Sequence record: PV806339.1
From: a phage
Length of the DNA: 60,026 nucleotides
Direction: 5' to 3' (one strand)
The position numbers were made by a program, and so were the translations under genes. This document shows positions 29,186-57,268 of the stretch, piece by piece. The notes under the pieces are model-generated. The model worked only from the letters and a program-made list of their open reading frames with translations. It had not been told where the DNA came from and made no database searches. How positions within the stretch are numbered: position 1 is the first letter of the stretch; every line of letters starts with the position of its first letter.

Positions 29186-31381
29186 GTGGCTGATGAAGAC
29201 GTAGGTATCAGCGCGGCCAAGTTGGTCGGCGAAGCCTTGCAGTGGAATGGCGAGAAGCCCAAACTCACATACCTGTCCCGGTGTGTAGGGGAAGCGTTAG
29301 CCATTTCCGCATTGAACATGGACGCGGCGAAAAACTTCGGGGAGGTTTTGCAGTGGGACGGTAAATTGCCGTCCATCTTCCGCGCCTCCAGACTGGTCGG
29401 CGAAGTGCTGGCGATTCAAAAGATGGAGATCCGCGCATCGTCAATGATTTGCGAAGCGCTGGTCAAAGAGCCGCAATTTATGGCGGCCGAAATGATCTGC
29501 GAGGCTATCGGTCAGGCGGCCACGGAACGGCCACCGCTTTACGCAGATGCGGTGTATGAGTATGTCACGCAGCACGACGTCGTACCGCCTTTGTCGGAAG
29601 TCATTTCTCCGGAAAGTCTGTACACGTTGTGGAATTACGCCATTGTCCAGCGGCCGATCGATGACCCGATTTCCTACAACATCGTGAAGCAGGCGGTGAC
29701 GCTGTCCGTTCTGGCGTCGCCTATCGTGACCATTTCGTACGACAAGGTGAAGACCGCGTGGTCGTATGCTGTGGTGTCCGCGACGCTCGGTGACTTCCCG
29801 CTGCCGGATGAAATGTGGTCGAAGATCAGCACGAAGCAGGTCTGGAATCTGGTATTGCAGTCGATCGACATCCCGTACGTCCCGACGTCTGGTGTGTTCG
29901 TTCGTCATGAATCGACGCTGGTGGTTCAGGCCCATCCGCTGCCGATGTACACGACGCCTGCGTCCGTGAAGTCGAACGCGGTTCTGGCCGCGCAGAAGCG
30001 CCCGGTTGAACGACTCCCGCGCTCAATGACTCGCGTGGCGCAGGGATTATCGCAGGCCGTTACCGCGCTGCCGATCCCGATGCCACGGTCTGACGTGTTC
30101 GCCGCGCAGATGCTGTCACAGGCTGTAATCCCGGCCGACTTCGTTGACCCGACTGTCGGCGTCGAGCACGCGGCCGCAGTGACGTCGTACGCCGTTTGCG
30201 AGTATCAGGTGTCGCTTCCTATCAGTTACACGCGCGCGAAGTCCCTGACGCCGCTGGTGCTGCAATTTAGCGATAACCAACGAGTCATTCCGCTGTCCAC
30301 GATGCGCACCAAACATGTTTCGTCTCAGTTCTTGGTCAAGTCTGACTTGCTCCCGGTGCTGTCCACGATGCGCACCGAACATGTTTCGTCTCAGTTCTTG
30401 GTCAAGTCTGACTTGCTCCCGGTGCTGTCTCGGACGCGCGTTAAACAGGTACGCGGCTATGCAGTGCGGGCGGAAGAGTACACGCCTCCGATTAACCTGC
30501 TGGTGTGGTCGCGCGCTGACGCTGTTCGCATGTCGGTGGTGCAGCAGGCAACGGACTACCCTGACCCGGGAATCCCTACAACGTCGGCCATCGTCAGCGC
30601 GGCCACGGCGTACCACGTCATGAAAGCGCTGGACTACGAAGATCCGAACGACATGTGGGAGGCGAGCAAGGTTCAGATCGTGCCGCAGTTCTTAGAGAAG
30701 GTGGTGAAAGCCCAACCGCTGCGGCTCCCGATCTCGTACGCTCCGCTGGCGCAATTTGTTGAACTGGTGACGCGGTACCAGTACATGCCGCCTCCGGGCG
30801 AAGTCGCCGAGTCCGGTATCCATGTTCGTCAGGTGATGCAGCCAGTGGCGTTCCGCGCGACGTACCCTGACCCGACTGTCCCGGTATCCCACCTGACGGT
30901 CAATCAGGTGCTGGAGCACATCGCGATCCCGGCCGACTATCCGGACGTCCACCTGCCGACGTCGGACGCGATTGTAAATCAGGTATTGGAACACGTTGCG
31001 CAGATTGACGATTTCCCTGATCCCGGTACCATGTTCCGGCCGCTTATTGTCAGCCAGATCATTCAGCAGGCGGCACAGGATGCGTCTTACCCGGATTGGA
31101 GCACACTGCATAAACCGCTTGCGGTTCAGCAGGTAATTCAGCATGTATCAATGACGGCGGAATACCCTGACAAGGACGTCCCGCAATCATTTGCAAAAGT
31201 GTCTCAAGTTTTGCAGCACTATGCCGATAAAGCTAATTACCCAGACAAAGATGCTCCCCAATCCACGCTACGAGTCCGTCAGGTACTTGAGCAGGTAATG
31301 ATGCGCGACAAGTCGATGTACGAAATGCCGCAGCCACCACGGAAACATCGGGTGCAAATCACTTGCCGCTTTGTGTACTGA
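29186..31381 (+). CDS. 731-aa repeat protein, probable tail fibre
   Basis: GTG start with an AAGGGGG SD. Built almost entirely of degenerate ~22-24-aa repeats (e.g. YPD(P/K)xxPxSxxxVxQVL(E/Q)Hxxxxxx). Last structural gene before a strong terminator. Confidence 0.8.
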   Translation: MADEDVGISAAKLVGEALQWNGEKPKLTYLSRCVGEALAISALNMDAAKNFGEVLQWDGKLPSIFRASRLVGEVLAIQKMEIRASSMICEALVKEPQFMAAEMICEAIGQAATERPPLYADAVYEYVTQHDVVPPLSEVISPESLYTLWNYAIVQRPIDDPISYNIVKQAVTLSVLASPIVTISYDKVKTAWSYAVVSATLGDFPLPDEMWSKISTKQVWNLVLQSIDIPYVPTSGVFVRHESTLVVQAHPLPMYTTPASVKSNAVLAAQKRPVERLPRSMTRVAQGLSQAVTALPIPMPRSDVFAAQMLSQAVIPADFVDPTVGVEHAAAVTSYAVCEYQVSLPISYTRAKSLTPLVLQFSDNQRVIPLSTMRTKHVSSQFLVKSDLLPVLSTMRTEHVSSQFLVKSDLLPVLSRTRVKQVRGYAVRAEEYTPPINLLVWSRADAVRMSVVQQATDYPDPGIPTTSAIVSAATAYHVMKALDYEDPNDMWEASKVQIVPQFLEKVVKAQPLRLPISYAPLAQFVELVTRYQYMPPPGEVAESGIHVRQVMQPVAFRATYPDPTVPVSHLTVNQVLEHIAIPADYPDVHLPTSDAIVNQVLEHVAQIDDFPDPGTMFRPLIVSQIIQQAAQDASYPDWSTLHKPLAVQQVIQHVSMTAEYPDKDVPQSFAKVSQVLQHYADKANYPDKDAPQSTLRVRQVLEQVMMRDKSMYEMPQPPRKHRVQITCRFVY
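30293..30424 (+). repeat. 66-bp tandem duplication (2 copies, 1 mismatch) inside the repeat-protein gene
   Basis: Units 30293-30358 and 30359-30424 differ only by aaacat/gaacat. They encode LSTMRT(K/E)HVSSQFLVKSDLLPV twice. Confidence 0.95.
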
Positions 31382-32880: not shown

Positions 32881-33342
32881 TTAAATGGTCGGGTGGGTGA
32901 TAACCACCGTACGTTCACCCTCGATTGTCTGGTGGTACCGCAGTGAGGACACCAGATGATCGAGGTTATTGAAGACCGGGATATTCAGCCGCTTCGCCTC
33001 TTCCACCTCCGCGCGGGTACCTGAACTGCGCATCGCGTCTTCACCAATCAGCAGAACCGCGTCACAGCGGCGCATCAATTCCATCGTGCATTCCAGCCAA
33101 TATTCATCCGGTATCTCGCCCTCGGTCTTGTACTCGAAGTTGGCCGTGTTCAGGTGCGGCGTGACCGGGAACATCTTGTGGACGTAGAGTTGATCGACAA
33201 CCGACACGGCCGTCTCTTCGGCTTTCAGGATGTTGACCTTCGTCGGAACGGTGCAGCCAGAACCGATGATGTACGGGCGGTACGGCCCGGCCAGATAGAT
33301 CATGACGGGCTTGGCCGCCGGGTTACACATATTCACGTTCAT
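32881..33342 (-). CDS. nucleoside 2-deoxyribosyltransferase-like protein (DUF1937/DUF4406-like)
   Basis: 153 aa. VMIYLAGPYRP near the N-terminus, PVTPHL, and RCDAVLLIGEDAMRSSGTRAEVEEAKRLNIPVF match the hallmark pattern of that superfamily. Confidence 0.6.
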   Translation of the reverse strand: MNVNMCNPAAKPVMIYLAGPYRPYIIGSGCTVPTKVNILKAEETAVSVVDQLYVHKMFPVTPHLNTANFEYKTEGEIPDEYWLECTMELMRRCDAVLLIGEDAMRSSGTRAEVEEAKRLNIPVFNNLDHLVSSLRYHQTIEGERTVVITHPTI

Positions 33343-33623
33343 ATTAAGCCTCGGTTATATTCGTCCACGTATTTTTCATTTTCAGGAGATCGGTCTACCT
33401 GATTAATCTCGCTGAACTCGCAGGAAATAATATCCCCGCTAGGCAGGCGCACCCGCCAAAAAATATCCTCTTCACGCGGCCCGGTGCGTTCCCATTCGAG
33501 CACGGTTCCGTAGTATTTATGCCCGTTGAATCGGTCAGTGAAATGCACGGAGTCGCCTTTAATCGGCCAGCCCGGTTTTATCTTGGCACGGTATTTCCGT
33601 TTTATAGCCTCAACGTCGATCAT
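33339..33623 (-). CDS. hypothetical protein
   Basis: 94 aa. ATGA overlaps at both ends, within the operon. Confidence 0.7.
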   Translation of the reverse strand: MIDVEAIKRKYRAKIKPGWPIKGDSVHFTDRFNGHKYYGTVLEWERTGPREEDIFWRVRLPSGDIISCEFSEINQVDRSPENEKYVDEYNRGLI

Positions 33624-34519
33624 ACTTCATCGTCCTCGAAGTCTTCGTCAAAAAGGTCAGACTGGAACGGCTCACATGATGATGTGCAGCCATCGCCGTC
33701 GTCCGGGTTAGTGCGGGTCAGGTACAGCAGGCGCTGGCGGTCTTCCAGTCCGGCGTCGGCCATAAGCTGATCCGTGTTTCGTTTGCCACGGAACCATGTG
33801 TGGCCGTCTTCCGCTTTAACGTGGCCGTACTGGATTTCCATGTCGCGGTTCCACGTAAACCATTCAGGGTGTTCGTGGGCTATCAGGTACAGCTTTGCAT
33901 TGCTCTTTTTAAAGCAGGTCAGGCAGTTCCCGTAATGCGGCGGGATGTTCAGTTTGAACGGCATGGCATCCCAATAATCGTTCACGTCCTGCTTATCGAA
34001 ACTCCCCCAATGGCAAAGGGGGTACACCAGATTGAATTTCTTGGCCGACGCTTTGTTCGGGTCAGCCCGCTCCGGCTCGTCCGACCGCATTCCGATGGCC
34101 GTCTTGGCACTCCACCCCCGGCGCGCAAGACCATTGCTGCGCATCCAGTGGCGAATCGTCTGCGTTTTCAGATAGTCGCTGCACTTCTGGCGCGATATGT
34201 TCGGGATGCCCTCGACGCTGATCAGGCTTTCAAACGGTTCGCCCTTCCGTGCGGCCGTCTCGAAACTGACGACCCGGTGGCGCATCCCGACACCGTGTTC
34301 CGGACTGGCGTAGCCCTCCAGCCACACCAGATTCAGGCCGAAGTGTTTATCCACCTTGTCGGCGAATATCAGTGTTTCTTCGTGCTCCCGGCCAGTATTG
34401 GCGAACACGAAACGCAGGTCATATTTGTGGCCGTAATTCTCGATCAGGTATGCACAAAGAAAGCCGGACGACTGGCCGCCGGAAAAGCTGACGACAAGCG
34501 GCTCTTTGTTAGTTGGCAT
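33620..34519 (-). CDS. PP-loop ATPase, PAPS-reductase-like family
   Basis: The PP-loop VVSFSGGQSSGFL follows directly after the start MPTNKEP (the ORF opens at 34603 but overlaps the upstream gene). Cys-rich C-terminus (GNCLTCFK...CTSSC). Ends ...FEDDEV. Confidence 0.7.
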   Translation of the reverse strand: MPTNKEPLVVSFSGGQSSGFLCAYLIENYGHKYDLRFVFANTGREHEETLIFADKVDKHFGLNLVWLEGYASPEHGVGMRHRVVSFETAARKGEPFESLISVEGIPNISRQKCSDYLKTQTIRHWMRSNGLARRGWSAKTAIGMRSDEPERADPNKASAKKFNLVYPLCHWGSFDKQDVNDYWDAMPFKLNIPPHYGNCLTCFKKSNAKLYLIAHEHPEWFTWNRDMEIQYGHVKAEDGHTWFRGKRNTDQLMADAGLEDRQRLLYLTRTNPDDGDGCTSSCEPFQSDLFDEDFEDDEV

Positions 34520-35222
34520 CGGTTGAATCCTCGCATAATGGTATGAAGTCCTTCGGGCCGTCGCCTGAACCGGGGAAGCGCCGGAAGACCATTTCGTCTT
34601 CAATGGTCAGTTTATCCTTGCTGTTCCCGCGACGATAGAAGTCGGCCATGCCGCTGCCGTACGTGCGGTCAATCCCGGCACCATACGGATCTTGCGGGCA
34701 AAGTTCCAGCGCCAGCACTTCTCGCCAGTCCGGCCGATCGATGCGGCTGACGATGCGATGGTTATTCGACACCCGGCAGTACCCCGAGGCTATCAGCGTT
34801 TCCACCAGCCGGGCCTGTTCCTTGCCACGCATCGTTTTCGCGCGCTTGACGTCCTCTTTCCTTGCCCGGGCGAAATACTCCCGCGAGAAGCGGCTACCGA
34901 CGTTCTCCGCGAAGATGCGCAGGTCTTTGATGACCATGCCCCATTTCCGTCGGCTACCTTCTTCCACGTATCGAATGGCCCCGGCGTAGCGCAGCAGCAT
35001 TGCATCGGTCAGGCGGGCATTCTTCGGGTCTTTGGCCTTCCACCAGCCGTACACTTCCACCATGCGGGCCATCGCCTTGTCGCTGTACCATAGCTCGGCG
35101 TGGCTGGTGGGCGAGTATTCCGGGTAACACTTCGCTCCGCCGTCAAACGCCCGGTAGCAGTACCAGATCCCGCCGCTGTACTGGAAGTGCGGTATCTTGT
35201 GTCGCTCTTTCATCGTAGCCAT
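34509..35222 (-). CDS. hypothetical protein
   Basis: 237 aa, tightly packed in the operon. Confidence 0.75.
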   Translation of the reverse strand: MATMKERHKIPHFQYSGGIWYCYRAFDGGAKCYPEYSPTSHAELWYSDKAMARMVEVYGWWKAKDPKNARLTDAMLLRYAGAIRYVEEGSRRKWGMVIKDLRIFAENVGSRFSREYFARARKEDVKRAKTMRGKEQARLVETLIASGYCRVSNNHRIVSRIDRPDWREVLALELCPQDPYGAGIDRTYGSGMADFYRRGNSKDKLTIEDEMVFRRFPGSGDGPKDFIPLCEDSTDAN

Positions 35223-35223
35223 G

Positions 35224-35676
35224 TCAGCCCTCGGCCAGTTCAGGATTAATGGTAAACCGCAGCCCGTACTTAAAATCGTTTACGGACAGCAGATGGATGA
35301 TGTCGTCCGAGTTTTCTATCTTGATGCCCTTCGCGGCCAGCGCTTCCCTCGGCGGAAGCCACGGATCGATAGTCAACTGGCGGTATACCGGGGCCATGTG
35401 TATCGGCGAGCCTTCGCGCACGATGAATGGCAGCGGGTACGGACGGCCAGACCGGGCGTGGATACGACGTGGCACGGGCGAACGGGTAATACCGTAGAAC
35501 GATGCCATAACGTCGGTCAGCCCTTTGCCGTACATCGAGCGTATGACTTCTTCGTCGCCGCGCAGGAGCCGCTTAACGATATGCCGGACAAACGGGTACA
35601 GATCCCACTTCGCGCGTTGGCGGATGACCGAAGCCTGTCGGCGGGCCTCCTGCTGGAATAATGATCCGCGTTTCAT
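35224..35676 (-). CDS. hypothetical protein
   Basis: 150 aa. ATGA overlap with the upstream gene. Confidence 0.75.
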   Translation of the reverse strand: MKRGSLFQQEARRQASVIRQRAKWDLYPFVRHIVKRLLRGDEEVIRSMYGKGLTDVMASFYGITRSPVPRRIHARSGRPYPLPFIVREGSPIHMAPVYRQLTIDPWLPPREALAAKGIKIENSDDIIHLLSVNDFKYGLRFTINPELAEG

Positions 35677-35984
35677 TTTTTATATTTATCCTCTTCGTTG
35701 AAATTACGGACAGGCACGCCGTCCCAAATGCGTACGATGCCCGGGTGCGCCTCGCGCCACGATCCGAGCAGGTGGTCAGCCCACTCCTTCAAGTCTTCGC
35801 TGTATGCGGCCAGAAGTCGGTCTTCAATGGACTGGCGTTCCGCTGCGGACATCGGCCCGACCTGATGGATGATGTCAAACCAGATCTCGTCGTGGACACC
35901 GTTGACGGCCACCAGATAGCCTTTTGCTTCCAGATCTGCGATGACGGCGTGGGTGCGGTCGGCTTTCATGCGCATGTAATTCAT
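35673..35984 (-). CDS. hypothetical protein
   Basis: 103 aa when started at the ATGA overlap (35984). The ORF opens at 36020. Confidence 0.65.
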   Translation of the reverse strand: MNYMRMKADRTHAVIADLEAKGYLVAVNGVHDEIWFDIIHQVGPMSAAERQSIEDRLLAAYSEDLKEWADHLLGSWREAHPGIVRIWDGVPVRNFNEEDKYKK

Positions 35985-36262
35985 GCGGCGGCCCTCCCCC
36001 ATAAGATTTGTAGGGTGCATGGCGGCTCGTCCGGGTCGGAATAGATTTCGAACCCGGCGTCCTTGATCCAGCCGATAAGCATGGCGCGGGATTTATCGGA
36101 CAGCGGGTGGTCGTTGTGTAACAGCGCGACCGTAGTGGTGGTCAGCCCGGCCGATGCGGCCCGGCGGATAAGACGCTCTACCTCGCCACGTACTTCAATC
36201 GCTTCGGCGGTGTGGTGATCGGTAGCAGCTTTATACATTTCATCGGCAGTGATAGTCAGCAT
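35981..36262 (-). CDS. hypothetical protein (first gene of leftward operon 4)
   Basis: 93 aa. AGGGGG SD 5 nt upstream of the start, downstream of promoter 36306-36335. Confidence 0.75.
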   Translation of the reverse strand: MLTITADEMYKAATDHHTAEAIEVRGEVERLIRRAASAGLTTTTVALLHNDHPLSDKSRAMLIGWIKDAGFEIYSDPDEPPCTLQILWGRAAA

Positions 36263-36275
36263 GTTGCCCCCTAAA

Positions 36276-36305
36276 GTAAAAATCCCCGTTGTTGCCTTCG
36301 GGGAT
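36276..36305 (-). terminator. hairpin plus U-tract overlapping the discriminator of the adjacent promoter
   Basis: Minus strand reads ATCCCCG-aaggcaacaa-CGGGGAT-TTTTT. The 5' arm (36305-36299) begins immediately after the -10 element. Confidence 0.6.
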
Positions 36306-36335
36306 AATATAGGTTATACACGCGACGTATGTCAA
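36306..36335 (-). promoter_or_regulatory. sigma70-type early promoter, leftward operon 4
   Basis: Minus strand reads TTGACA-TACGTCGCGTGTATAACC-TATATT (18-bp spacer). The spacer carries the conserved box. Confidence 0.7.
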
Positions 36336-36342
36336 ACAGTTT

Positions 36343-36855
36343 CTAAGACTTTCTTTTCCGGGCGTGCTCCAGTCGATCACCGTGGCCCTTCTCGACCATG
36401 AAATCGCGGGTCTGTTTGTGCAGGTTGGCGATCGTCTCCTTCGTTTTCCGCCAGCGCGCCACTAACCCTTCGCGCACTTCCCGTTCGCGGAACAGGACGG
36501 CCAAGTCCGTCGCGGTGATGTCGTACCCTTCGCACGCGGCCAAAACTCCGGCCTTGAATTCGTAGAACAGGCTTTGGATCTCCCGGAATTCGGCCTCGGT
36601 TACGATCTCGATATTGACCGTTTTCCCTTCACCGATGTCGTCCTCGGTAAACAGGCACCCGGCTTCGCCAATGGCGCGGCCATCGTCCTTCCGGTAGCGC
36701 GTATTCCCTACGATGATCTGCGTCGGCGTGGTGCGCTCTACGCGTCGTTTCACGGCGAAGGTTACTTCCGGGCTGTACCCGATACGAATGCTGTTACGCT
36801 CCAGTGTCATGTCGCCAGTTTCGAGGTGTCCGAATCTCAATTTTTTATCGGCCAT
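36343..36855 (-). CDS. hypothetical protein
   Basis: 170 aa, last gene of leftward operon 3. Confidence 0.75.
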   Translation of the reverse strand: MADKKLRFGHLETGDMTLERNSIRIGYSPEVTFAVKRRVERTTPTQIIVGNTRYRKDDGRAIGEAGCLFTEDDIGEGKTVNIEIVTEAEFREIQSLFYEFKAGVLAACEGYDITATDLAVLFREREVREGLVARWRKTKETIANLHKQTRDFMVEKGHGDRLEHARKRKS

Positions 36856-37091
36856 TCTGCGTATTCTCCCTTCGGTAATTCGTCAGTCACGTCGCGCTCG
36901 GCCCATTTCAGGAACGCTTCGCGGGTGCAACTTGGATAGTGTCGGCCAAAGCCTACGACCGGGCCGTCATACTGGATGTGCGTGGCACCGATGTACAGGA
37001 TGGTGCGGTCGTTCACCAGTCCGCTGCGGTTCTGCGGCCGTTTACCGCGATAGGTGCGGCCGACTTTAAGTTTTAACGCTTCATCGGCCAT
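36837..37091 (-). CDS. hypothetical protein
   Basis: 84 aa, within the operon. Confidence 0.65.
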   Translation of the reverse strand: MADEALKLKVGRTYRGKRPQNRSGLVNDRTILYIGATHIQYDGPVVGFGRHYPSCTREAFLKWAERDVTDELPKGEYAEWPIKN

Positions 37092-37302
37092 CGGTGTCCA
37101 CCTCGACTTCGAACGTGCGCGGAACGGTCATGGTCAGCACGTCATTCTCGGTGAACGGTGACAGCGGTTCGTCGCCCGGCTGGAAGCGCAGCGTCACGCT
37201 GCCGACGTTGTGATACGTGATATAGCGAAGGCGGAACTGCTCGCCGAAGATGGTCGCGAGTACGCCCGGCTTAACGTCTCCTGCGGGAATTTTCATGGTC
37301 AT
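37081..37302 (-). CDS. hypothetical protein
   Basis: 73 aa when started at the ATGA overlap (37302). The ORF opens at 37326. Confidence 0.6.
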   Translation of the reverse strand: MTMKIPAGDVKPGVLATIFGEQFRLRYITYHNVGSVTLRFQPGDEPLSPFTENDVLTMTVPRTFEVEVDTDGR

Positions 37303-37493
37303 AGTCTCCAGTCTAACGGCTCCCATTGGCCGTCTCGTTTGATGTAGCAGCCGCTTAACGGGCTGTATTTGGTTGGTAGTTCGGTCTGGACGCTGACGTC
37401 GTTACACCCGATCGCCGCGCCCACACGGCCAATAACAAACAGCACACCGCAGATAATCAATACAAACAGCGTTAGCGCAGCGATCTTCTTCAT
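37299..37493 (-). CDS. small membrane protein
   Basis: 64 aa with an N-terminal TMD (IAALTLFVLIICGVLFVIG). Confidence 0.65.
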   Translation of the reverse strand: MKKIAALTLFVLIICGVLFVIGRVGAAIGCNDVSVQTELPTKYSPLSGCYIKRDGQWEPLDWRL

Positions 37494-37503
37494 GGTGGCC
37501 CCT

Positions 37504-38322
37504 TTATTCCTTCGGTGGATTTGATTGGTGGCGATTTAGCCAGATGACAATCCCGGCAGTATAATTGATCACGCCGAGCAACTCCCTAACCCTTTGGTCA
37601 TGCGTTGGCAGGTTGACGCCTTCTACGACCTTCTTGCACACCTGATAGACCAAGCCGAGCGGGCTACCGATCAGGTCGGAAATAGCGTTCATCGGCTGCT
37701 GGTGGAAAGGCAGGTCGTTTGCGTGGCGTTCCCGCCCTTTACCATACGCGGCTTGCGTCAGCGCATCATGCAGCACTTTGACTAATTCGGAATAATCGTT
37801 GCTGTCTTTGACGTCCCGGAATTCGTATTTCCATGACCGGGGGGCCGAAGGTGCCACGGCTTCCGGCGCGACGAGGGCTTCGTTAAGCGGCCAGCCCTGC
37901 GCGAAGGAGAACATGATGTAATTCATTGCGTCGATGTACTGATTCTCTTCGAGACAACGACGAATGGCGTCGGAACATTGCTTCGGCCAGTCCGGCTGCA
38001 TCCATCCCAATTCCAGTCCCGGGTTTTTGCGCTCGAACTGCACCAGACGGTCAAGCATGTAGCCGAAAGTCTTCTCGGCCTGTTCAACCGTTGGCGCGCT
38101 CAGTTTAGGGCGGCGCAGCACGATGACCGTCTCGGCGTCGGCGGCTTTCGGGATGGCGATCTGATTGTCCATCATGGAATTGATAAGTTCGAGAACGTGG
38201 TCGGTCGCGTCGTCGTCCGTTTCAAAGTCGTCCATGTCGAGGTTCAGTGCGTTCATCACTGAATTGCGGAAACGCTGCGCGGATGGCTTGCCAGCGTGCT
38301 TTTGTTTTGATGCGTCTACCAT
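37504..38322 (-). CDS. hypothetical protein (C-terminal YGKGRERH...INY motif, possibly all-alpha NTP-pyrophosphohydrolase-like)
   Basis: 272 aa, first gene after promoter 38362-38390. The family guess is weak and rests on the motif only. Confidence 0.7.
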   Translation of the reverse strand: MVDASKQKHAGKPSAQRFRNSVMNALNLDMDDFETDDDATDHVLELINSMMDNQIAIPKAADAETVIVLRRPKLSAPTVEQAEKTFGYMLDRLVQFERKNPGLELGWMQPDWPKQCSDAIRRCLEENQYIDAMNYIMFSFAQGWPLNEALVAPEAVAPSAPRSWKYEFRDVKDSNDYSELVKVLHDALTQAAYGKGRERHANDLPFHQQPMNAISDLIGSPLGLVYQVCKKVVEGVNLPTHDQRVRELLGVINYTAGIVIWLNRHQSNPPKE

Positions 38323-38324
38323 AA

Positions 38325-38360
38325 TAAAAAACTCCCGTTGGTGGATTAACCTTCGGGAGT
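38325..38360 (-). terminator. hairpin plus U-tract overlapping the initial transcribed region of the adjacent promoter
   Basis: Minus strand reads ACTCCCG-aaggttaatccaccaa-CGGGAGT-TTTTT. The 5' arm (38360-38354) starts 2 nt after the -10 element. The 3' arm contains the SD GGGAG of the next gene. Confidence 0.65.
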
Positions 38361-38361
38361 A

Positions 38362-38390
38362 ATATTAATTACACATGTCGCGTGTGTCAA
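38362..38390 (-). promoter_or_regulatory. sigma70-type early promoter, leftward operon 3
   Basis: Minus strand reads TTGACA-CACGCGACATGTGTAAT-TAATAT (17-bp spacer). The box is present in inverted orientation. Confidence 0.75.
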
Positions 38391-38399
38391 ACGCTTTCT

Positions 38400-39086
38400 T
38401 TAAATCTCGTCCCACATCTTGATCCAGCGGTTCCGGATCTTGGCCGATACGTTAGCCAGTGGCGCGCCGATTTCCAGTAGCGTTTCACGGTCGATATACT
38501 CGTTGGGGTGAATGCGGTCACTCTCCGGGTCGAAGATGTGGATGGCCGCGCCGAACCCGGCTGACGTGATTTCGCTGCTGCCTTCCTTCGGCCGGAACCA
38601 GACTGGCGGTTCAAACCCGATGCGCCCTTTGATGAAGATGGTACGCGTGGCGATAGCGTCCGGCCACCAGCTTTCTGATGTCGCGGACTTGGTCAGCCAG
38701 ATGGTTCCCGCACCTTTGGCCCGTTCTTCGTCGGCCTTGCGCATGATGTGCGTCATCCCGGTCAGGTGATCTTTCCCGGCGCGCTTCTGGCTGTAAGGGG
38801 GGTTAGCGTAGGCCCAAACGCGGGTCTTCTGGTCGAACCCGTCGCTGGCGTGGATCTCGGCCAGACGTTTTGACCAGTCCTGCTTTAACGCATTGTCTTC
38901 GGCGGTGAAGAAGCGCTGACATTTGGCGTTCTGGCCGTCGGTGAACAGGTCAAGCACGATTGGCCCGTACAGCTTGTTAATCGCTTGAAACAGCCATTCC
39001 GGCGTACGCCATTGGTCGCCGATCATCTTTGGTTCGTGTTCGTCCATGTTTTTCATGGCGTTGAGTGCATCAACATACTGGCTCAT
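38400..39086 (-). CDS. dam: DNA N6-adenine methyltransferase (phage Dam family)
   Basis: DQWRTPEWLF...LDLFT, the catalytic NPPYS motif and the C-terminal FIKGRIGF match the phage Dam (T1-type) family pattern. Confidence 0.8.
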   Translation of the reverse strand: MSQYVDALNAMKNMDEHEPKMIGDQWRTPEWLFQAINKLYGPIVLDLFTDGQNAKCQRFFTAEDNALKQDWSKRLAEIHASDGFDQKTRVWAYANPPYSQKRAGKDHLTGMTHIMRKADEERAKGAGTIWLTKSATSESWWPDAIATRTIFIKGRIGFEPPVWFRPKEGSSEITSAGFGAAIHIFDPESDRIHPNEYIDRETLLEIGAPLANVSAKIRNRWIKMWDEI

Positions 39087-42236: not shown

Positions 42237-43313
42237 TTAAACCTCGTCGTCGTCTTCTTCGTCGTTCAGCGTTCCGGTGTACTCGACTACCTGCCCGGCC
42301 TCGTCCAGCACGCTGATCACCGCACGCAGGGACTTATCGAGTTGGAACAGGTTAGCCATCATGGTCAGGAACTGGCCGCCGTCGGTGCCGTAGCGTTCGA
42401 GCGTGGCGTCGTAGTTCGCATCAACGTCGGCCTCGCCGATGTGGATACCGGACAGGATGGCTTTGTCGGACAGGCGGAAGTACACGGTGTCGATGCCCGG
42501 GCATTGCGTATCGACTTCGAGATCCAGCGCGCGGACAGTCCAGTGACGTGACAGCAGGTCAACCACCGACTCGTCTTTGAAGATGTCCGTGTCCTTCATC
42601 TTGACGTCGTCGCCATCGTCGTGTTTCAGGTGGATAAACGCATCGCCCTTGATGCCGTCCTGCTGGCCGAGAACCGCGCGCTGCATTAACTGGCGCAGCT
42701 CATACTCGCTCGGCAGGAGGTGTTCGACGGGCCATGTGCCGAGCGCGGTACGGATCAGCGCGCTGCACTCTTCTGCCGTCTTCGCGCTCGACGTGAACAC
42801 GTACACGAACGGGGCGGACAGGATGACGTTGACGCGGGAAGGGCGGATAGGCGCGTGTTTCAGCATTTCCGCTTCCACGTCGTCCTTCATCTGCGCCCAA
42901 TCCTTGCGGTTCGGCTCCCAACCCTCGATCTCTTTCTCCCGCAACGCGGCCATGCGCTTCACGACTTCATTTCGTACGCTGACGCCGGGCAACACACGTT
43001 CGCGCTTCTCGATCTGGAAGACGATGGCGTTTGTTCCGGGGATGGCGAGGGCGAATTTACTTTCAACCTCTTCGCCGTACGCTGCAAAGCCCATTGTCTT
43101 GTAAGACGCCTCCGGCGGATCTGACACTTCATGCTTTTCGAGTGCATCGCTAAACGCTCCTTTCGCGAAAGCCGTTACGGCCTCTTCGTCAACGTTCGGC
43201 AGGTTCAGGATCAGGCGGTGCAGCGGCTTGACCTTCTCGTTACCGTCGTTGGCCGCGTCATACAGCGCGCCGAGGTGCAAGATAATGGCTTTCTCATAAC
43301 CCTTGATTTTCAT
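42237..43313 (-). CDS. RdgC-like recombination-associated protein
   Basis: 358 aa. The segment ERVLPGVSVRNEVVKRMAALREKE...VFTSSAKTAEECSALIRTALGTWPVEHL parallels E. coli RdgC (...[21 protein letters not shown]) as I recall it. Ends EEDDDEV. Confidence 0.5.
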   Translation of the reverse strand: MKIKGYEKAIILHLGALYDAANDGNEKVKPLHRLILNLPNVDEEAVTAFAKGAFSDALEKHEVSDPPEASYKTMGFAAYGEEVESKFALAIPGTNAIVFQIEKRERVLPGVSVRNEVVKRMAALREKEIEGWEPNRKDWAQMKDDVEAEMLKHAPIRPSRVNVILSAPFVYVFTSSAKTAEECSALIRTALGTWPVEHLLPSEYELRQLMQRAVLGQQDGIKGDAFIHLKHDDGDDVKMKDTDIFKDESVVDLLSRHWTVRALDLEVDTQCPGIDTVYFRLSDKAILSGIHIGEADVDANYDATLERYGTDGGQFLTMMANLFQLDKSLRAVISVLDEAGQVVEYTGTLNDEEDDDEV

Positions 43314-43656
43314 GCTCTATGGCTCCTACGTTAATTAAATTGGCTGGTGCTCCGTGGTACATCGACTGCGCAGCATGGAACATCGCGGCGCGTAGTGCTT
43401 CTTTGGCCGCCCGAAGGCCCGCCATTGATTCAGCGTACTGGTCGCTGACCGTGTTATACGCCGCCTCGTCGTTGTCCAGTGTGGCGAGGTCAAGCATTTT
43501 GGTACTGTGGGCCTGCACTTCGTCTTCCATGTCCTTGAAAAACGTCTCAAGGGCAGACAGTTTGCAGGTGATTTGGTCTAACCGGACTTTGCGCAGTTCT
43601 TGGAACTGCACGCGAACGAATTCAATGCCTTCCACCAGCCACCTCCACGACGACAT
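43294..43656 (-). CDS. hypothetical coiled-coil protein
   Basis: 120 aa, within the operon. Confidence 0.65.
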   Translation of the reverse strand: MSSWRWLVEGIEFVRVQFQELRKVRLDQITCKLSALETFFKDMEDEVQAHSTKMLDLATLDNDEAAYNTVSDQYAESMAGLRAAKEALRAAMFHAAQSMYHGAPANLINVGAIEHENQGL

Positions 43657-44455: not shown

Positions 44456-44827
44456 TTAAACTTCGTCGTCGTCCGAAACGTCGGTGTCAGTACAGGTCAC
44501 AACGGCCTGAATGAACATGCGGCCAGACGGGTAAGTCACCAGCGCGGATTCCATGCTGAACCGTTGGCCGTGGTGTTTCATGGCGTTCCGGATGGAAGAA
44601 TTAAGGCTGGCCCGCATCTTCGCTTTGAGGGCATTGGCCTCGTCCTGTACCTGCGAAAGCGTACGGTCAAGCGGGAGTTCTTGGGACAGGGTGTACACGC
44701 CACCGACTTCCAGCGCAATGAGGTTCCCCACGACGCTGTACACGCGCACGCGTGACGGCAGTTCAACATCCGGCTCGGTCGTCATCATTGCGCCAGTCAG
44801 TTCGGCCGGGCTTAGTTCTTTGCTCAT
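44456..44827 (-). CDS. hypothetical protein (first gene of leftward operon 1)
   Basis: 123 aa. TGGAG SD. Ends ...VSDDDEV. Confidence 0.75.
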   Translation of the reverse strand: MSKELSPAELTGAMMTTEPDVELPSRVRVYSVVGNLIALEVGGVYTLSQELPLDRTLSQVQDEANALKAKMRASLNSSIRNAMKHHGQRFSMESALVTYPSGRMFIQAVVTCTDTDVSDDDEV

Positions 44828-44869
44828 TGGGATGGCTCCAGTTGGTTCGTTAAATGTTACGTTCGGAGA

Positions 44870-44898
44870 ACAATAGTTCTACACGCGACGTATGTCAA
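44870..44898 (-). promoter_or_regulatory. sigma70-type early promoter, leftward operon 1
   Basis: Minus strand reads TTGACA-TACGTCGCGTGTAGAAC-TATTGT (17-bp spacer) with the conserved box. Confidence 0.7.
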
Positions 44899-52024: not shown

Positions 52025-54610
52025 CTAAACTTCGTCTTCATCGTCAAACGGGTCTGGCTTTTTGCCGACCAGTTTTTCGACTTCTGCGTCATGCCGTTTT
52101 AACGTAGTCTGCACCCACGACGAGTTAAGTTTCCCCGCGTCGTCGAATGCCCCTTTGACCCGCTTCCTGACATAAACGCGGCCAGATTCGCCGCCAAATT
52201 TGACCACGCCGCCCGGCTTGAAGCCCAATTCCATAAGCATGTTTTTCAGGCGGTTCGTCTTCGGCATTTCCACGTCTGTCATTTCGAGGAATGCGTTTTT
52301 CAGGGACGGCACGAAGATGACGTCGCGGTGTACGCCCGGCGTCGTTCCGTCACGAAGCATTTGTGCGATTGCGCCTTCCACGCCATCGTCAGACGCGTCG
52401 GCCATGACCGCGAATGCTTCGGTGTCCTGCGGTGCGTGTCCTTTGGCATCGAAATCCTTTCCGATCTCCCAATCGAGGAACCACTTTTTGATAGCAGGTG
52501 CGTGGTTTTCGATTGCCCGGTACACGTTTTTGAAGAAGCGCGCGCGTTCAGTCTTCGACCCGTAAACCCGCTCCATGTCCAGATGATTTTCTGCCTGCGT
52601 GGACACCACCAGATAACGACGCTGGTTTTCATCGAGTGGCAATGCGTTGAAGTGGTTGGTGAACATCATTTTGCTGCTGGTGTTCACGACTTCCTTCGGC
52701 TTGCGGCCCTTTGGCTCAATCTGGAAGCGATCGTTTGTGATGAATTCCTTCTGGCGTTCCACCGCGCTGTACCGATCGCCTTTGTCGTAGATCTCTTCCA
52801 CGATTTTCAGGATGTGGCCCTCGGCCCAATCGCTGAAACGGCCATTCATCACGGTGTTTGACACATAGCCCACGTTCGACGCGCCGAGCATCCGCGACAT
52901 GATGATGCCGAGCGTCGTTTTACCAGAACCATGCGCACCACGGATCAGAAGCGAGTAGTTGATGCGTTTCGTTGGGTGCTGAATAACCCACGCCATCCAG
53001 TCCAGAACATAGCGGCGTTCCTTCTCGTTCGGGAAAAGCACGATGAAGAAGTCTTTGATGATCTCCAGCGCCTTTTTGTCGTACGGAGAAAGGTCAGTCG
53101 CGGCCTCCGGAATGGATTCAGGGTCAAAAGAGTTCAGCCACGTACGCCCACGGTCGTCAATAAAGAATTCCGGCCCGATCACCCCCTCTTTCGGCTTCCA
53201 CACAGATTCCGGCATGTCACCGTGCATCGCCGGGTAGTACATCGCGTCCCAAACGATAGGAACCGGGCGGACTACCGACGCATAGTGGACAGGCTTGAAG
53301 GCTTCTTCCTCAAACACGCATTTTTTCGCAAAAGCGACGTCGAAAGCGCCTTTTGTGATGTAATCGCCCGTGGTTTTTTCGATAAAACTGTCATTTGCCT
53401 TCGAGAAAACGAAGTTTTTCAGCCACTGCGGAGTCTCTTTTGACCCGTAATCGAAGCCCAAAAGCTCCCTTTTGTCACCAGCAGTGAGGCGGAAGTTGTT
53501 GATCCTGCGGTATGCTTCGGCCGCAATCTGGACGATGGCCTTGCGGGTAAGCCCGAAAATCTGCGCTTTTTTGAATGATTCGGCCCACGCATTCCAGTCA
53601 TTCGCCTCGGTACACTCGGCGAAAGCCTCGCGGTACTCGATGGCGCGTTCTTCCTGCTCGGCTTTCTCGATGTCCTGCACTTCTTTGATGATGGTGCCGA
53701 GCGTGATCAGTCGAGTCGAGTTGTGCGCGAAGCCCTTATCCCACTTGTATTCGAAATCACCTTCGTCGAAGTTGTGTGCCTGCATGGCCCATTCGCGGGC
53801 AATGGCCTTCGCCTCGTCCTGATCGCGGCAGGAAATTTGCAGCGCGGCCAGTACGGTGATGTAGTTCTCGTAATCTTCCGGGTTCGGGTATTTCAGGACG
53901 ATGTCGCGCAGTTCATCGTACGTGCCGTCCCACTTTTTGACGTCAGACAGCGCGGCCCAATCGTCATCGTCTGCCGAACCGATAGACTCATAACCGTTCA
54001 TTGGCCGTTTGACCATTGTCCAGCCCAAGTCCTTCGCGTATCGGTCGAATTCGGCGGCGATCTCGCGAGCGGTATCGAGGCTGATCTCTTCGAGGTCAAG
54101 GTCGGCGGCGTTGTTCAGCGGATTCTCGCCATCAATCCAGTAATAGTCGCGCTTGGTGTCCGGGTGGATACCGTACGCAACGAACTGCTGGCCGTCGGCG
54201 AGGATTTCAACTGCATGGCGCTGGCCGAAGTCGTCTTCCCACACGCCGGATTTCACTTTGGCGAACGGGTTTTCGGTTCGGTACAGGTAGAGTTTCTTCG
54301 GCTCCCGGCCGATACGACATGGCGCTGCACCGACGTTCTCGGCGATCCAGTCTGCCATGTGCGCCACGGCGTCTTCATCGTAAACGTCGATGTCAACCGC
54401 CGGGGTGTATTTGGTCAGAATCCCGATGCCGTTATTCGTATAGCGTTTCGCCCAACGCTGGATCTGCTCCTTATCATTGATTGTTCGTTCCCAATCTTCA
54501 CCGATAGGGCGTTTGCCCGCACCCTTCTTATCGGCGTCCGGGGCGTAGATAGGTACGATGGTGTACCCATTCCCCCAAAGCGTTTCGCCGTACTCTTGCC
54601 AGTAGTTCAT
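52025..54610 (-). CDS. bifunctional primase-polymerase / P-loop helicase (prim-pol plus P4/D5-type NTPase)
   Basis: 861 aa. N-terminal prim-pol-like region (GYTIVPIY...GKRPIGEDW), Walker A GAHGSGKTTLG, Walker B-like ILKIVEE. Ends FDDEDEV. Confidence 0.85.
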   Translation of the reverse strand: MNYWQEYGETLWGNGYTIVPIYAPDADKKGAGKRPIGEDWERTINDKEQIQRWAKRYTNNGIGILTKYTPAVDIDVYDEDAVAHMADWIAENVGAAPCRIGREPKKLYLYRTENPFAKVKSGVWEDDFGQRHAVEILADGQQFVAYGIHPDTKRDYYWIDGENPLNNAADLDLEEISLDTAREIAAEFDRYAKDLGWTMVKRPMNGYESIGSADDDDWAALSDVKKWDGTYDELRDIVLKYPNPEDYENYITVLAALQISCRDQDEAKAIAREWAMQAHNFDEGDFEYKWDKGFAHNSTRLITLGTIIKEVQDIEKAEQEERAIEYREAFAECTEANDWNAWAESFKKAQIFGLTRKAIVQIAAEAYRRINNFRLTAGDKRELLGFDYGSKETPQWLKNFVFSKANDSFIEKTTGDYITKGAFDVAFAKKCVFEEEAFKPVHYASVVRPVPIVWDAMYYPAMHGDMPESVWKPKEGVIGPEFFIDDRGRTWLNSFDPESIPEAATDLSPYDKKALEIIKDFFIVLFPNEKERRYVLDWMAWVIQHPTKRINYSLLIRGAHGSGKTTLGIIMSRMLGASNVGYVSNTVMNGRFSDWAEGHILKIVEEIYDKGDRYSAVERQKEFITNDRFQIEPKGRKPKEVVNTSSKMMFTNHFNALPLDENQRRYLVVSTQAENHLDMERVYGSKTERARFFKNVYRAIENHAPAIKKWFLDWEIGKDFDAKGHAPQDTEAFAVMADASDDGVEGAIAQMLRDGTTPGVHRDVIFVPSLKNAFLEMTDVEMPKTNRLKNMLMELGFKPGGVVKFGGESGRVYVRKRVKGAFDDAGKLNSSWVQTTLKRHDAEVEKLVGKKPDPFDDEDEV

Positions 54611-55078: not shown

Positions 55079-55130
55079 TCATCCCGTCAACACGACACGA
55101 CCTTTTAAACACTTAACGGAGTAGAAAATT

Positions 55131-55547
55131 ATGTCTGGTATCTTCGAACAACTGCTGGCTGAACAACAAAAAACCAACACCCTGCTGGAAGGCGTTCTGG
55201 CAGCACTGAAAGGCGGCGCGGTGAACACTTCCGCTGACGCTGGTAGCGAAACTACTGAAAAAACCACCACCACCAAAGGCGGTGCTAAGGGCGGCGCGAA
55301 AGGCGGTGCAGGTAAAACCGAAACTAAAGCGGTCAAGCCTAAACACACCAAAGACGAAGTAGTCGCGGCTGTCGTTGCGGTTAAAGACGCGTTCGGCGCG
55401 CCGGAAGCCAAGAAAATCACCGCACACTTCGGCCTCGCCAAAGTCGCGGAAGCGAAGGAAGAACACTTCGACGAAATCGTCGAAATGTGTGAAGCCAAAC
55501 TGGCTGAAAAAGATGAAGGCGGTAACGGCGAAGAAGACGACGTTTAA
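55131..55547 (+). CDS. hypothetical protein with a Lys/Gly/Thr-rich low-complexity centre
   Basis: 138 aa. GGAG SD. First gene after the rightward promoter and followed directly by a terminator. Ends GEEDDV. Confidence 0.75.
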   Translation: MSGIFEQLLAEQQKTNTLLEGVLAALKGGAVNTSADAGSETTEKTTTTKGGAKGGAKGGAGKTETKAVKPKHTKDEVVAAVVAVKDAFGAPEAKKITAHFGLAKVAEAKEEHFDEIVEMCEAKLAEKDEGGNGEEDDV

Positions 55548-55608: not shown

Positions 55609-55938
55609 GTGACCAGCATTACTTTCACCAACGTAGCAACATCCGGCGGCGCAGTTCTCGCGCGCACTTGGGCGGAGTTTCGTTTTCAAATCGGTGATCG
55701 CGATGTGCTGTTCAGAGTTACTTCACCTGTTTCGAAACACGAAGCGCCGCTGCTCGTAACCCATGCTGCATCGGGCTATCGAGTGTGCGACGTCTGGTGG
55801 GACGACGTGGCGAAGACTCGCTTTAACGCAGGCCGCAATAATTACAGCGGGGCAGGCGCTAGGGCATTGGTAGCGACGATTGAGCGAGTCGGCGAACACC
55901 GATTCCTCAATGCGATAAAGGCGTATCCGAATGAGTAG
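55609..55938 (+). CDS. hypothetical protein
   Basis: 109 aa from the GTG 55609, preceded by GGAGAGG. The longer ORF from 55375 overlaps the upstream gene and the terminator. Confidence 0.6.
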   Translation: MTSITFTNVATSGGAVLARTWAEFRFQIGDRDVLFRVTSPVSKHEAPLLVTHAASGYRVCDVWWDDVAKTRFNAGRNNYSGAGARALVATIERVGEHRFLNAIKAYPNE

Positions 55939-57268
55939 TAAGTCACTGTTAGTCCGCATCATGCGGGAATTCGGCGGTGGCGGCCACTCAATCTTCGCGC
56001 CTTCTGCGTCAGCGCGTTGGATCGCATGTTCTGGAAGCCTGATAGCCGGGCTTTTCGAGCATGACGAAACCATCTACGAGGCGGCGGAAGGCACGGTGGC
56101 CCACGGAATCGCCGAACAATGGCTGCGAACGGATGTCCGGCCAACCCATTTAATCGGTACGGTCGAGACGATCACGGAAGGCGGTGTCAGCCATGACATC
56201 CCCATTACTCGGTCAATGCTCGACTCGGTTCAGGAGTACGTTGACTGGTGCCGATTTGAAGAGGGTGAAATGTTCACGGAAATCCGGGTCTGGTTTACCG
56301 ACCTGATGCCGCGAGCGAACCCGGATGAACCTGACGAAGACCCGATCGAGTTTGTCGCTCAGGGCGGAACGGCGGATAATATCATCATCCGCGACCGAAC
56401 CTTGATCGTGACCGACCTGAAATACGGGACTGGCGTTCAGGTTTTCGCGGAAGGGAACCCGCAGGCGCTACTTTACGCGTACGGTGCGTACCGCGCTTTC
56501 TCGGATGAATACGAGTTTGACCGTATTGTCATCCGGATCGCGCAGCCGAGGCTCGACCATTTCGATACGTGGGAAATCACGATTGACGAATTGTTAGAGT
56601 TCGCGGAGTATGCCCGGGAGCGAATTGCAGCGGCATGGAGCCTTACCGCGCCGCGCCGCGCATCCCTGAAAGGGTGTCGCTTTTGCCGGGCAGCACATAA
56701 CTGCGCAGCGATAGCGTACATGATGGAATGCGCAGTGGGCGGGGACGTGGAATTCCTTGAAGCTGAATTCGGGGAGGAAGAAATGTCAGTATTGCGTGAT
56801 GCGCTGGCGCAGGAATATAAGTTCCGGCGTGCGCAGTTCGGAAACCTGACAACCGAGCAGATGGCGAAGATCCTGCCATACCGCAAGGTGGTCGAAAACT
56901 GGTTCTCGCGCCTTGACTTCGAACTGGAACGCCGCGCAATGAACGGCGAGAAGGTACCGGGTCAAAAGCTGGTGGAGTCGCGGACAAACCGTAAATTCGC
57001 CAACGAGAAAGATGCGATCGCGCTGTTCCGGTTCCTCGATATTGACGAGGACAAGTACATCGAACGCAAACTGCGTACCCCGGCGCAGATGGAAGAAGTG
57101 CTTAGGGATGAATTGGGCGTGTCCCGGGCTGGCGCGCCGAACATCATCGCGGGGATCGTCTACAAGCCGGAAGGCAAGCCGACACTGGCACCGCTGACCG
57201 ATAAGCGGCCACCACTGGACGGCAAGTATTCCGGGGCGTGGGACGACGAAGATGATGACGAAGTGTAA
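55931..57268 (+). CDS. PD-(D/E)xK nuclease, DUF2800 / Cas4-like
   Basis: 445 aa. PSASARWIACSGS and AAEGTVAH at the N-terminus, the VTDLKYGTG catalytic motif, and the Cys cluster CRFCRAAHNCAA. Ends WDDEDDDEV. Confidence 0.85.
   Translation: MSSKSLLVRIMREFGGGGHSIFAPSASARWIACSGSLIAGLFEHDETIYEAAEGTVAHGIAEQWLRTDVRPTHLIGTVETITEGGVSHDIPITRSMLDSVQEYVDWCRFEEGEMFTEIRVWFTDLMPRANPDEPDEDPIEFVAQGGTADNIIIRDRTLIVTDLKYGTGVQVFAEGNPQALLYAYGAYRAFSDEYEFDRIVIRIAQPRLDHFDTWEITIDELLEFAEYARERIAAAWSLTAPRRASLKGCRFCRAAHNCAAIAYMMECAVGGDVEFLEAEFGEEEMSVLRDALAQEYKFRRAQFGNLTTEQMAKILPYRKVVENWFSRLDFELERRAMNGEKVPGQKLVESRTNRKFANEKDAIALFRFLDIDEDKYIERKLRTPAQMEEVLRDELGVSRAGAPNIIAGIVYKPEGKPTLAPLTDKRPPLDGKYSGAWDDEDDDEV

Follow-up and report, generated by a model that had tools for sequence, protein, structure and literature searches.

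A NinC-like PP-loop protein, a protein of the deoxyribosyltransferase fold and a Dam methylase in the leftward early arm of a Chi-like Salmonella phage

The ninC gene of phage lambda, whose sequence appeared in 1982, has remained an orphan from that time on. The gene, which encodes Nin 290 (PHROG 424, a subset of PF01507), is dispensable for plaque formation (PMC10695390), and the NinC-type homologues of phosphoadenosine phosphosulfate (PAPS) reductase occurring in phages have been called uncharacterised (PMC11437467). The stretch of phage DNA analysed here (sequence record PV806339.1, 60,026 nucleotides, referred to in its whole length as the window) encodes, between positions 32,881 and 39,086, a NinC-like protein together with gp41, a protein with the fold of the nucleoside 2-deoxyribosyltransferases (NDT), and a Dam-family N6-adenine DNA methyltransferase. 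This region of 6.2 kb is 94-98% identical to Chi-like Salmonella siphoviruses (FSL SP-099, SeF6b, Chi) and is matched by 114 phage records, and the window is assigned by its sequence to a Chi-like Salmonella siphovirus (Chivirus, Casjensviridae). An earlier note on this DNA had proposed that the three proteins take part in one base- or backbone-modification or anti-restriction pathway. The explanation that is slightly favoured here is that the leftward early arm of the Chi-like phage encodes, in this region, three enzymes of nucleic acids or nucleotides which function independently of one another, and not a single pathway.

Depending on the protein considered, the closest described systems belong to distinct families. 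Lambda NinC resembles the NinC-like protein of the window in its length class, its PP-loop, its five cysteines, which include a C-x3-C-E-x-F motif, and its niche among replication and recombination ("nin") genes, but it ends with ...GREAA whereas the Chivirus protein ends with ...DDEV, a tip of the type found on the phage protein that binds single-stranded DNA (SSB). DndC, SspD and BrxP similarly share a PAPS-reductase-type PP-loop fold, conserved cysteines and a presumed action on DNA; however, they sit in host defence islands, whereas NinC-like genes sit in phage replication modules and lack an adjacent nucleoside triphosphatase (NTPase) of the DndD/SspC/BrxC type, DndE/SspB and a dedicated desulfurase. 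Because the NTPase partner that defines the known DNA phosphorothioation (PT) systems (PMC12914056) is absent, the NinC-like protein falls outside these systems, and it may still work like a sulfur-inserting PP-loop enzyme. The [4Fe-4S] adenosine phosphosulfate (APS) reductase (2goy), TtuA, NcsA and LarE align with about 165 of its 299 residues, the C-terminal helical half being unique; its sequence scores far under the family cutoffs, and a cluster could be attributed to it by analogy.

In phage T7, the tails of the gp2.5 SSB and of gp4 dock on the T7 DNA polymerase, and the C-terminal aromatic Phe of the tail is essential. The Chivirus resembles T7 in possessing a T7-type SSB and a primase-helicase with a common acidic C-terminal tail, but the last residue of its tip is Val, and in Dam Ile or Val, instead of Phe, and the tip occurs on at least eight proteins including a PP-loop enzyme and, in a weaker form, on a DNA methyltransferase. 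The fold of gp41 is that of NDT, DNPH1 (Rcl) and MilB/BcmB (Foldseek probability 1.0, template-modelling score about 0.45-0.5), with which it also shares the Y-x-A-G-P N-terminal motif and the S-x-G-x3-E nucleophile motif; it differs from the NDT/DNPH1 superfamily by its score below the PF05014 threshold, its assignment to DUF7768 and an extra invariant R-C-D motif. The Dam protein passes both curated cutoffs for phage Dam (PF05869 and TIGR01712) and differs by a lineage-specific C-terminal extension of about 20 residues, conserved in Casjensviridae, which ends in W-D-E-I/V.

The curated record of phage Chi lists the counterparts of the three proteins as gp41 (hypothetical), gp42 ("ninC-like") and gp52 ("DNA methylase domain protein"). 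The Chi genome paper assigned putative functions to only 3 of the 34 genes of the rightward region, as NinC-, methylase- and exonuclease-like, and makes no mention of DNA modification (PMC4342425). All three genes are already annotated in dozens of GenBank records; the present analysis adds evidence against their being one pathway and against the reading of NinC as an auxiliary metabolic gene (AMG), and the pattern of a C-terminal tip on NinC and Dam.

Separate presence and absence of the genes

The four open reading frames (ORFs) of the region all occur on the minus strand, at 32881-33342 (153 residues), 33339-33623 (94 residues), 33620-34603 (with a TTG start) and 38400-39086 (228 residues). 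Their coordinates and the motifs quoted for the three proteins in the earlier note were found as described, and its typing of the proteins as a PAPS_reduct-type PP-loop protein, an NDT-fold protein and a Dam-family protein was right in each case. The gene for the gp41-like DUF7768 protein (32881-33342), of the NDT/DNPH1/MilB fold, is conserved in Casjensviridae as the one that closes the leftward arm. The 94-residue orf94 (33339-33623, PHROG 18367) is coupled to both neighbours by ATGA overlaps, NinC-like/orf94 on one side and orf94/gp41 on the other. The third gene encodes the lambda-NinC-family PP-loop protein equivalent to Chi gp42, and is likely to start at ATG 34519, and not at the TTG 34603 of the mechanical ORF, since a GAGGA Shine-Dalgarno sequence accompanies this ATG and the 299-residue product (33620-34519) matches Chi gp42 in length. 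The fourth encodes an orphan phage Dam methyltransferase, the equivalent of Chi gp52.

Cooperation of the NinC-like protein, orf94/gp41 and Dam in a single base or backbone hypermodification or anti-restriction pathway would agree with the fact that all of them are enzymes of nucleic acids or nucleotides encoded on one leftward arm, and with the predicted co-transcription and the ATGA coupling of the NinC-like gene, orf94 and gp41. The distribution of the genes in related phages is difficult to reconcile with it. Phage Chi possesses the NinC-like gene and gp41 but is devoid of orf94, whereas PMBT21, with flanking genes 97-100% identical, and Enc34 have kept orf94, gp41 and Dam and lack the NinC-like gene. 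Among the close relatives in the phage collection, Dam was counted in 105, gp41 in 101, the NinC-like gene in 83 (full-length in 57) and orf94 in 47. Natural losses of the NinC-like gene have left traces, e.g., a 90-nt remnant ORF between gp43 and orf94 in PMBT21 (L086:13751-13840), and, in Salmonella phage 35 (P0061), a truncated product of 178 residues which is 100% identical over the first 43% and then diverges. The NinC-like gene, gone or decayed in about half of the close relatives, is a frequently lost accessory cassette, and gp41 and Dam are core genes. Outside the close relatives, 80 diverse NinC-like loci from IMG/VR, searched with a gp41-family hidden Markov model and by phmmer with the ORFs of the window, contained a gp41-family gene in no case and a Dam homologue in one.

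A further argument for a common pathway had seemed to come from PHROG 33262, which is matched by both the NinC-like protein and Dam as if it were the profile of a PAPS-reductase+Dam fusion. As evidence for such a fusion it had to be rejected: a concatenated query found no fused or adjacent NinC-Dam pair in 50,697 phage genomes, none of the 914 matching records reaching a coverage of at least 80% in one place. Together with the lack of the C-terminal tip on gp41, these distributions led us to abandon the three-gene pathway of the earlier note as improbable.

The neighbours of the NinC-like genes in the 80 viral loci consist of DnaB, gp4-like primase-helicases, single-strand annealing proteins, Prim-Pol, Pol A and flap endonucleases, to which PD-(D/E)XK and DUF2800 nucleases, Sak4-like ATPases, NinG and SSB have to be added. 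No family is represented in more than 10 of the 80 loci, and phmmer, BLAST clustering and a count of Pfam domains in the ±2 neighbours brought out no specific partner. No cysteine desulfurase, DndD/SspC/BrxC-type NTPase, DndE/SspB or ParB was found near the NinC-like gene in these loci. Similarly, no P-loop NTPase of the DndD/SspC/BrxC type stands next to the NinC-like gene in the operon of the window. The NinC-like gene does show a mild association with DNA-modification genes. DNA methyltransferases directly adjoin it in about 4 of roughly 38 further loci, and in two relatives of the Chivirus, the Chi-like contig L088 (L088:11745-12536) and Klebsiella phage KPN N98 (gp60, L089:8375-9481), a C5-cytosine methyltransferase is located at most two genes away, which would also speak for a common pathway. 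Since C5-methyltransferases lie so close to the NinC-like gene in these two relatives, the leftward arm does collect DNA-modification genes, and its end looks like a hotspot at which cassettes of such genes are exchanged.

Two observations weigh against full independence of the three genes. The NinC-like gene and an NDT-like gene share an arm in three Chi-like lineages and, because of this co-occurrence and the ATGA coupling, a facultative functional link between the NinC-like protein, orf94 and gp41 is possible.

Family, fold and possible chemistry of the NinC-like protein

The NinC-like protein matches Pfam PAPS_reduct (PF01507) above threshold (6e-8) and PHROG 424 at 1e-72, and shares 29% identity with lambda Nin 290 (tblastn, E 2e-18). 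These scores identify it as a genuine member of the lambda NinC family. This orphan family is very large and, in a library of 1.84 billion proteins, comprises 1,029 clusters (50% identity, E<=1e-30), or 4,148 at E<=1e-3. Nearly all the members are single-domain proteins of 270-330 residues, and the long members checked for fusions contained no additional Pfam domain. The PP-loop S-F-S-G-G-Q-S-S (residues 11-18; 34466-34489, minus strand) has its residues S11, S13, G15 and S18 invariant in 34 diverse homologues, and the same alignment contains five invariant cysteines (C113, C199-x2-C202 and C278-x3-C282) as well as many invariant basic residues. The PP-loop, the five cysteines and these basic residues are all found in lambda NinC and in the homologue of KPN N98 as well. 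At the Cys-rich C-terminus, the C278-x3-C282-E-P-F motif, with both cysteines invariant, is followed by an acidic tail QSDLFDEDFEDDEV, motif and tail together (33623-33688, minus strand) being predicted to be disordered; the tail is lineage-specific and ends with ...DEDFEDDEV.

The AlphaFold2 model of the protein has a predicted local distance difference test (pLDDT) score of 89.6, with values below 50 for residues 272-299, a stretch in which both the acidic tail and the last of the Cys motifs are located. The structure comparison suggested by the earlier note retrieved exclusively PP-loop enzymes as the closest folds of this model, with [4Fe-4S] APS reductase, TtuA, [4Fe-4S]-LarE, TilS and NcsA at the top. 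Sequence searches of the PDB with the NinC-like protein and with gp41 gave no matches. The profile of the NinC family retrieved, beyond generic PAPS reductases, a sole solved protein, 21fy_C or "PptA" (270 residues, E 4e-4), over a match spanning the PP-loop and the GNCxxC-K region; searches of the literature, of fragment homology and of context found no function for PptA.

A Cys...CxxC arrangement combined with a mobile C-terminal Cys tail is known from APS reductase and from the [4Fe-4S] thiolases TtuA, NcsA and LarE. By analogy, the cysteines of the NinC-like protein would parallel those of the [4Fe-4S] enzymes, and the protein is probably an ATP pyrophosphatase or a sulfurtransferase-like enzyme that depends on Fe-S or Zn. 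Some points weigh against the analogy. The cysteines of the putative metal cluster could bind Zn or form disulfides; the use of ATP is uncertain because the PP-loop possesses T/S where the classical ATP pyrophosphatases have Asp (SGGxDS); and the weak match to PptA may point to a function already characterised in a distant relative.

According to GenBank, PHROGs and virome papers, the NinC-like protein would be a true PAPS/APS reductase, a cysH-type AMG that boosts the sulfate assimilation of the host. The PAPS_reduct match and the presence of APS and PAPS reductases among the top structural neighbours agree with this annotation, and the phage PAPS reductase is treated as an AMG in the literature, where the claim is unvalidated, as its authors acknowledge (PMC13369170). 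The curated CysH/APS-reductase models, however, score the NinC-like protein far below their cutoffs (NF002537, 18.3 bits vs 154; TIGR02055, 18.1 bits vs 235). The PP-loop of CysH is degenerate, whereas that of the NinC-like protein is of the canonical SGG type, and the C-terminal catalytic E-C-G-[LI]-H motif that characterises CysH is replaced in the NinC family by G-C-x2-S-C-E-[PA]-[FY]. Moreover, about 130 of the 299 residues have no counterpart in CysH, and the gene is located in replication modules, not among metabolic genes. The canonical PP-loop, the non-CysH Cys architecture, the low CysH scores, the location in replication modules and the replisome tail found here argue against the AMG label, and a role in sulfate assimilation is highly improbable. 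The question matters, as NinC-type genes are routinely reported in virome studies as sulfur-metabolism AMGs from which ecological conclusions are drawn (PMC13369170).

A different possibility is that the protein acts as a solitary DNA phosphorothioation enzyme of the DndC/SspD/BrxP type, supplied with sulfur by the host IscS, the phage replisome taking the place of DndD/SspC and DndE/SspB. In support of it, SspD is the best and sole PADLOC match of the NinC-like protein (E 4e-15, model positions 3-215 of 277), and the PAPS-reductase fold with its Cys motifs, the replisome-type tail, the replication-module context and the methyltransferase neighbours in some phages would all be in keeping with such a function. 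The DndC and BrxP models, in contrast, gave no match at E<0.01. Lambda carries NinC and, to our knowledge, lambda DNA has not been reported to show the Dnd degradation phenotype, which also counts against phosphorothioation. Host cysteine desulfurases can stand in for DndA/SspA, but all four established PT systems need a P-loop NTPase beside the gene for the PAPS-reductase domain, and isolates without the NTPase were devoid of PT (PMC12914056); no such NTPase partner recurs in the 80 loci. A solitary phosphorothioation enzyme thus ranks as a possible but rather doubtful reading.

The fold of the NinC-like protein is equally near to [4Fe-4S] APS reductase, TtuA, LarE and TilS, and the protein could act on RNA or nucleotides, e.g., as a tRNA thiolase or a lysidine-type modifier (TtcA/TtuA/TilS-like) which tunes translation or shields tRNAs from anticodon nucleases. 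This is quite unlikely with respect to the setting of the gene among DNA replication and recombination genes, not tRNA or translation genes, and to the SSB-type tail gained in Chivirus; in addition, no recognisable tRNA-binding domain such as THUMP was detected, PAPS_reduct being the sole domain found.

Returning to three independent enzymes as the preferred explanation, the NinC-like protein would adenylate an oxygen of its substrate, a nucleic acid or a nucleotide, and then replace this oxygen, most likely with sulfur provided by the sulfur-relay proteins of the host, without phage-encoded partners. The metal cluster, the sulfur chemistry, the substrate and the docking of the protein, discussed below, are all features that we infer. 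A conditional role, e.g., in anti-defence or DNA marking, would fit the dispensability and the frequent loss of the gene. A more general proposal is that the NinC family consists of solitary, replication-coupled enzymes that insert sulfur into or adenylate nucleic acids and mark nascent phage DNA without a DndD/SspC partner, and that in Chi-like phages both the NinC-like protein and Dam are addressed to the fork by a common tip; taken as a whole, it is unlikely. If true, solitary sulfur marking would represent a fifth way, and a minimal one, of modifying DNA with sulfur, or else a new thiolation of bases, and the common tip on the NinC-like protein and Dam a new "address-label" logic for the recruitment of DNA-modifying enzymes.

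The acidic C-terminal tip and the Dam methylase

The tip "DDEV", which the earlier note had recognised on both the PP-loop enzyme and the replication proteins, is a genuine and highly non-random feature. A [DE][DE][DE]V end occurs in 8 of 76 proxy genes of the window against 0.0098 expected (binomial P ~1e-21), and in 9 of all the ORFs of at least 60 residues, the ninth ending with EEDDV. The prototype is the Enc34-type (T7 gp2.5-like) SSB (57308-57919, plus strand; Enc34_ssDNA-bd 8e-31), which ends with ...DWEDEV. The cloning primer of its Enc34 orthologue encodes WDEDEV followed by a stop, and in the crystal the acidic tail of the Enc34 SSB docks on the adjacent molecule, in a groove of its beta-sheet (PMC5686142). 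On the minus strand, the tip is carried by the Prim-Pol/DUF5906 primase-helicase of 861 residues (52025-54610, ...DDEDEV), the RdgC-like recombination-associated protein (42237-43316, ...DDDEV), whose tip is conserved in four Chi-like lineages, and a DUF7609 protein (44456-44878). The other carriers besides the NinC-like protein are encoded on the plus strand, namely a DUF1441 protein (1683-2366), a DUF7443 protein (9258-9551) and a DUF2800 PD-(D/E)XK nuclease (55919-57268), as is the ninth tip-bearing ORF, a protein of 140 residues (55125-55547). The orthologues of RdgC and of the DUF7609 protein, 49-99% identical, all end with D-D/E-E-V in Chi, PMBT21, Enc34, L088 and KPN N98, and the tip, identical to the tail of SSB, resembles an "address label" common to the whole lineage.

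The NinC-like protein bears the ...DDEV tail in Chivirus only, and none of the gp41 orthologues examined carries the tip. In 80 unrelated phages, the C-x3-C-E-x-F/Y motif usually forms the very end of the NinC-like protein, and tails do not co-vary with those of the locus outside the Chi-like phages, as 0 of the 80 proteins have their last three residues in common with another gene of the locus. The Chivirus NinC-like protein would thus have acquired the address label of the lineage secondarily, Dam bearing a weaker version of it, and both are probably recruited to a hub that binds SSB-type tails. The tail of the NinC-like protein would dock to the receptor used by the primase-helicase, RdgC, the nuclease and SSB, for which the groove of the oligonucleotide/oligosaccharide-binding (OB) fold of SSB and/or the DNA polymerase are the candidates.

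Because the tip is real, highly non-random and conserved, the suggestion of the earlier note that it brings the PP-loop enzyme to the replication fork is reasonable as far as Chivirus is concerned, and can be extended to Dam. It does not hold for the family at large. The NinC-like protein of L088, 82% identical, ends with ...WENDDE and has no terminal Val, and that of KPN N98, 40% identical, has no acidic tail; these two proteins speak against replisome docking as a general property of the NinC family. Near-isogenic NinC+ and NinC- isolates of Chi-like phages, together with the short tail peptide, offer a natural experimental handle, including for the docking partner.

Other tails occur in the family. 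Many enterobacterial and lambdoid NinC-like proteins (P0003-P0019, P0098-P0114) have at their end an acidic stretch and then -A-A, to which type the ...GREAA end of lambda NinC (L092:1082-1954) belongs. The -A-A ending is a different lineage-specific tail and a candidate for partner docking or for a degron.

The Dam protein (38400-39086) scores 1e-30 against PF05869 (107 bits vs a cutoff of 28.1) and 140.4 bits against the TIGR01712 equivalog (cutoff 97.05), and the "YANPPYSQ" of its translation corresponds to the NPPY motif IV. Every Dam orthologue examined (Chi, PMBT21, Enc34, L088, KPN N98) ends with W-D-E-I or W-D-E-V. In the window, the W-D-E-I ending is encoded by the last four Dam codons (38403-38414) and lies beyond the Pfam Dam domain (residues 17-207 of 228). 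The ending may represent the replisome tip in a weak form, and its resemblance to the SSB tail and its conservation suggest that Dam travels with the replication machinery, where it would methylate nascent phage DNA. GATC is the methylation target of the characterised members of phage Dam. It is not depleted in the window (317 sites, observed/expected ratio 0.88), a frequency compatible with, but not a proof of, Dam methylation at these sites.

The core protein gp41, annotation and other features of the window

The gp41 protein, which contains the motifs IYLAGPY...SSGTRAEVEEA, matches DUF7768 at 1e-7 (32.6 bits vs a cutoff of 26), is sub-threshold against Nuc_deoxyrib_tr PF05014 (17 bits vs 28.8), and matches PHROG 355, "nucleoside 2-deoxyribosyltransferase", at 1e-31. 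Its homologues have kept Y16-x-A18-G19, P62, R92-C93-D94 and S106-x-G108-x3-E112, in which Y16, A18, G19, R92, C93, D94, S106, G108 and E112 are invariant, the invariance of S106, G108 and E112 having been assessed in 24 homologues. The S-x-G-x3-E112 motif presumably corresponds to the position of the Glu nucleophile of NDT and DNPH1. In agreement with the NDT typing, almost all the top 30 Foldseek matches of the gp41 model (pLDDT 78.8) are NDT, MilB/BcmB cytidine monophosphate (CMP) N-glycosidases or DNPH1, and a profile search matched only an uncharacterised structure, 1t1j; no functional literature on DUF7768 or DUF4406 was found. As modelled, gp41 is an NDT/DNPH1-fold core enzyme with an intact Glu nucleophile. 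It would act as an N-glycosidase or a transferase, most likely for editing or cleaning the (deoxy)nucleotide pool.

Some labels transferred to these phages deserve caution. In several RefSeq records (NC_025442, NC_021315, NC_004313 and others), the Dam genes are labelled "phosphoadenosine phosphosulfate reductase", a mislabelling due to the chimeric profile PHROG 33262. The homologue of gp47 (170 residues, 36343-36855) is labelled "thymidylate synthase complementing protein" (phrog_9072, "ThyX-like") and finds no support in Pfam or NCBIfam. The PHROG-derived RefSeq labels in this group look wrong on Dam and unsupported on gp47.

Dam had been placed two operons upstream of the genes at the end of the leftward arm, and the promoter-like sequences of the window fit this layout. 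Three intergenic gaps each contain a sigma-70-like site on the minus strand, at 41583, 38390 and 36335, all of them consensus matches only. The second, TTGACA-17-TAATAT (38362-38390), occurs in the gap just downstream of Dam and would start the middle operon; the third, TTGACA-18-TATATT (36306-36335, 11/12), lies within the gap upstream of the operon whose last genes are the NinC-like gene, orf94 and gp41. It is plausible that Dam closes one operon and that the NinC-like gene, orf94 and gp41 close the operon two further on. A gp43-like protein, encoded at 34509-35222 on the minus strand, has an 11-nt overlap with the start of the NinC-like gene and is kept even where the NinC-like gene is missing.

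Other features of the window concern its tetranucleotide composition and a protein unrelated to the three genes. AGCT is very scarce (46 observed vs 129 expected, observed/expected ratio 0.36), and CTAG is likewise under-represented (0.19); the avoidance of AGCT might result from selection exerted by a restriction system of the AluI type. Upstream of the lysis genes, an ORF of 731 residues (29186-31381, plus strand) contains a near-perfect internal tandem duplication, STMRTKHVSSQFLVKSDLLPVL / STMRTEHVSSQFLVKSDLLPVL, as well as many degenerate repeats of about 30 residues, and probably encodes a repetitive tail-fibre protein. Finally, "Staphylococcus phage SA1" (GU169904.1, 147 kb) and other records named after phages of Listeria, Enterococcus and Staphylococcus contain sequence 98% identical to Chi-like genes, and these Gram-positive-named entries probably either derive from mixed or chimeric assemblies or bear wrong labels.

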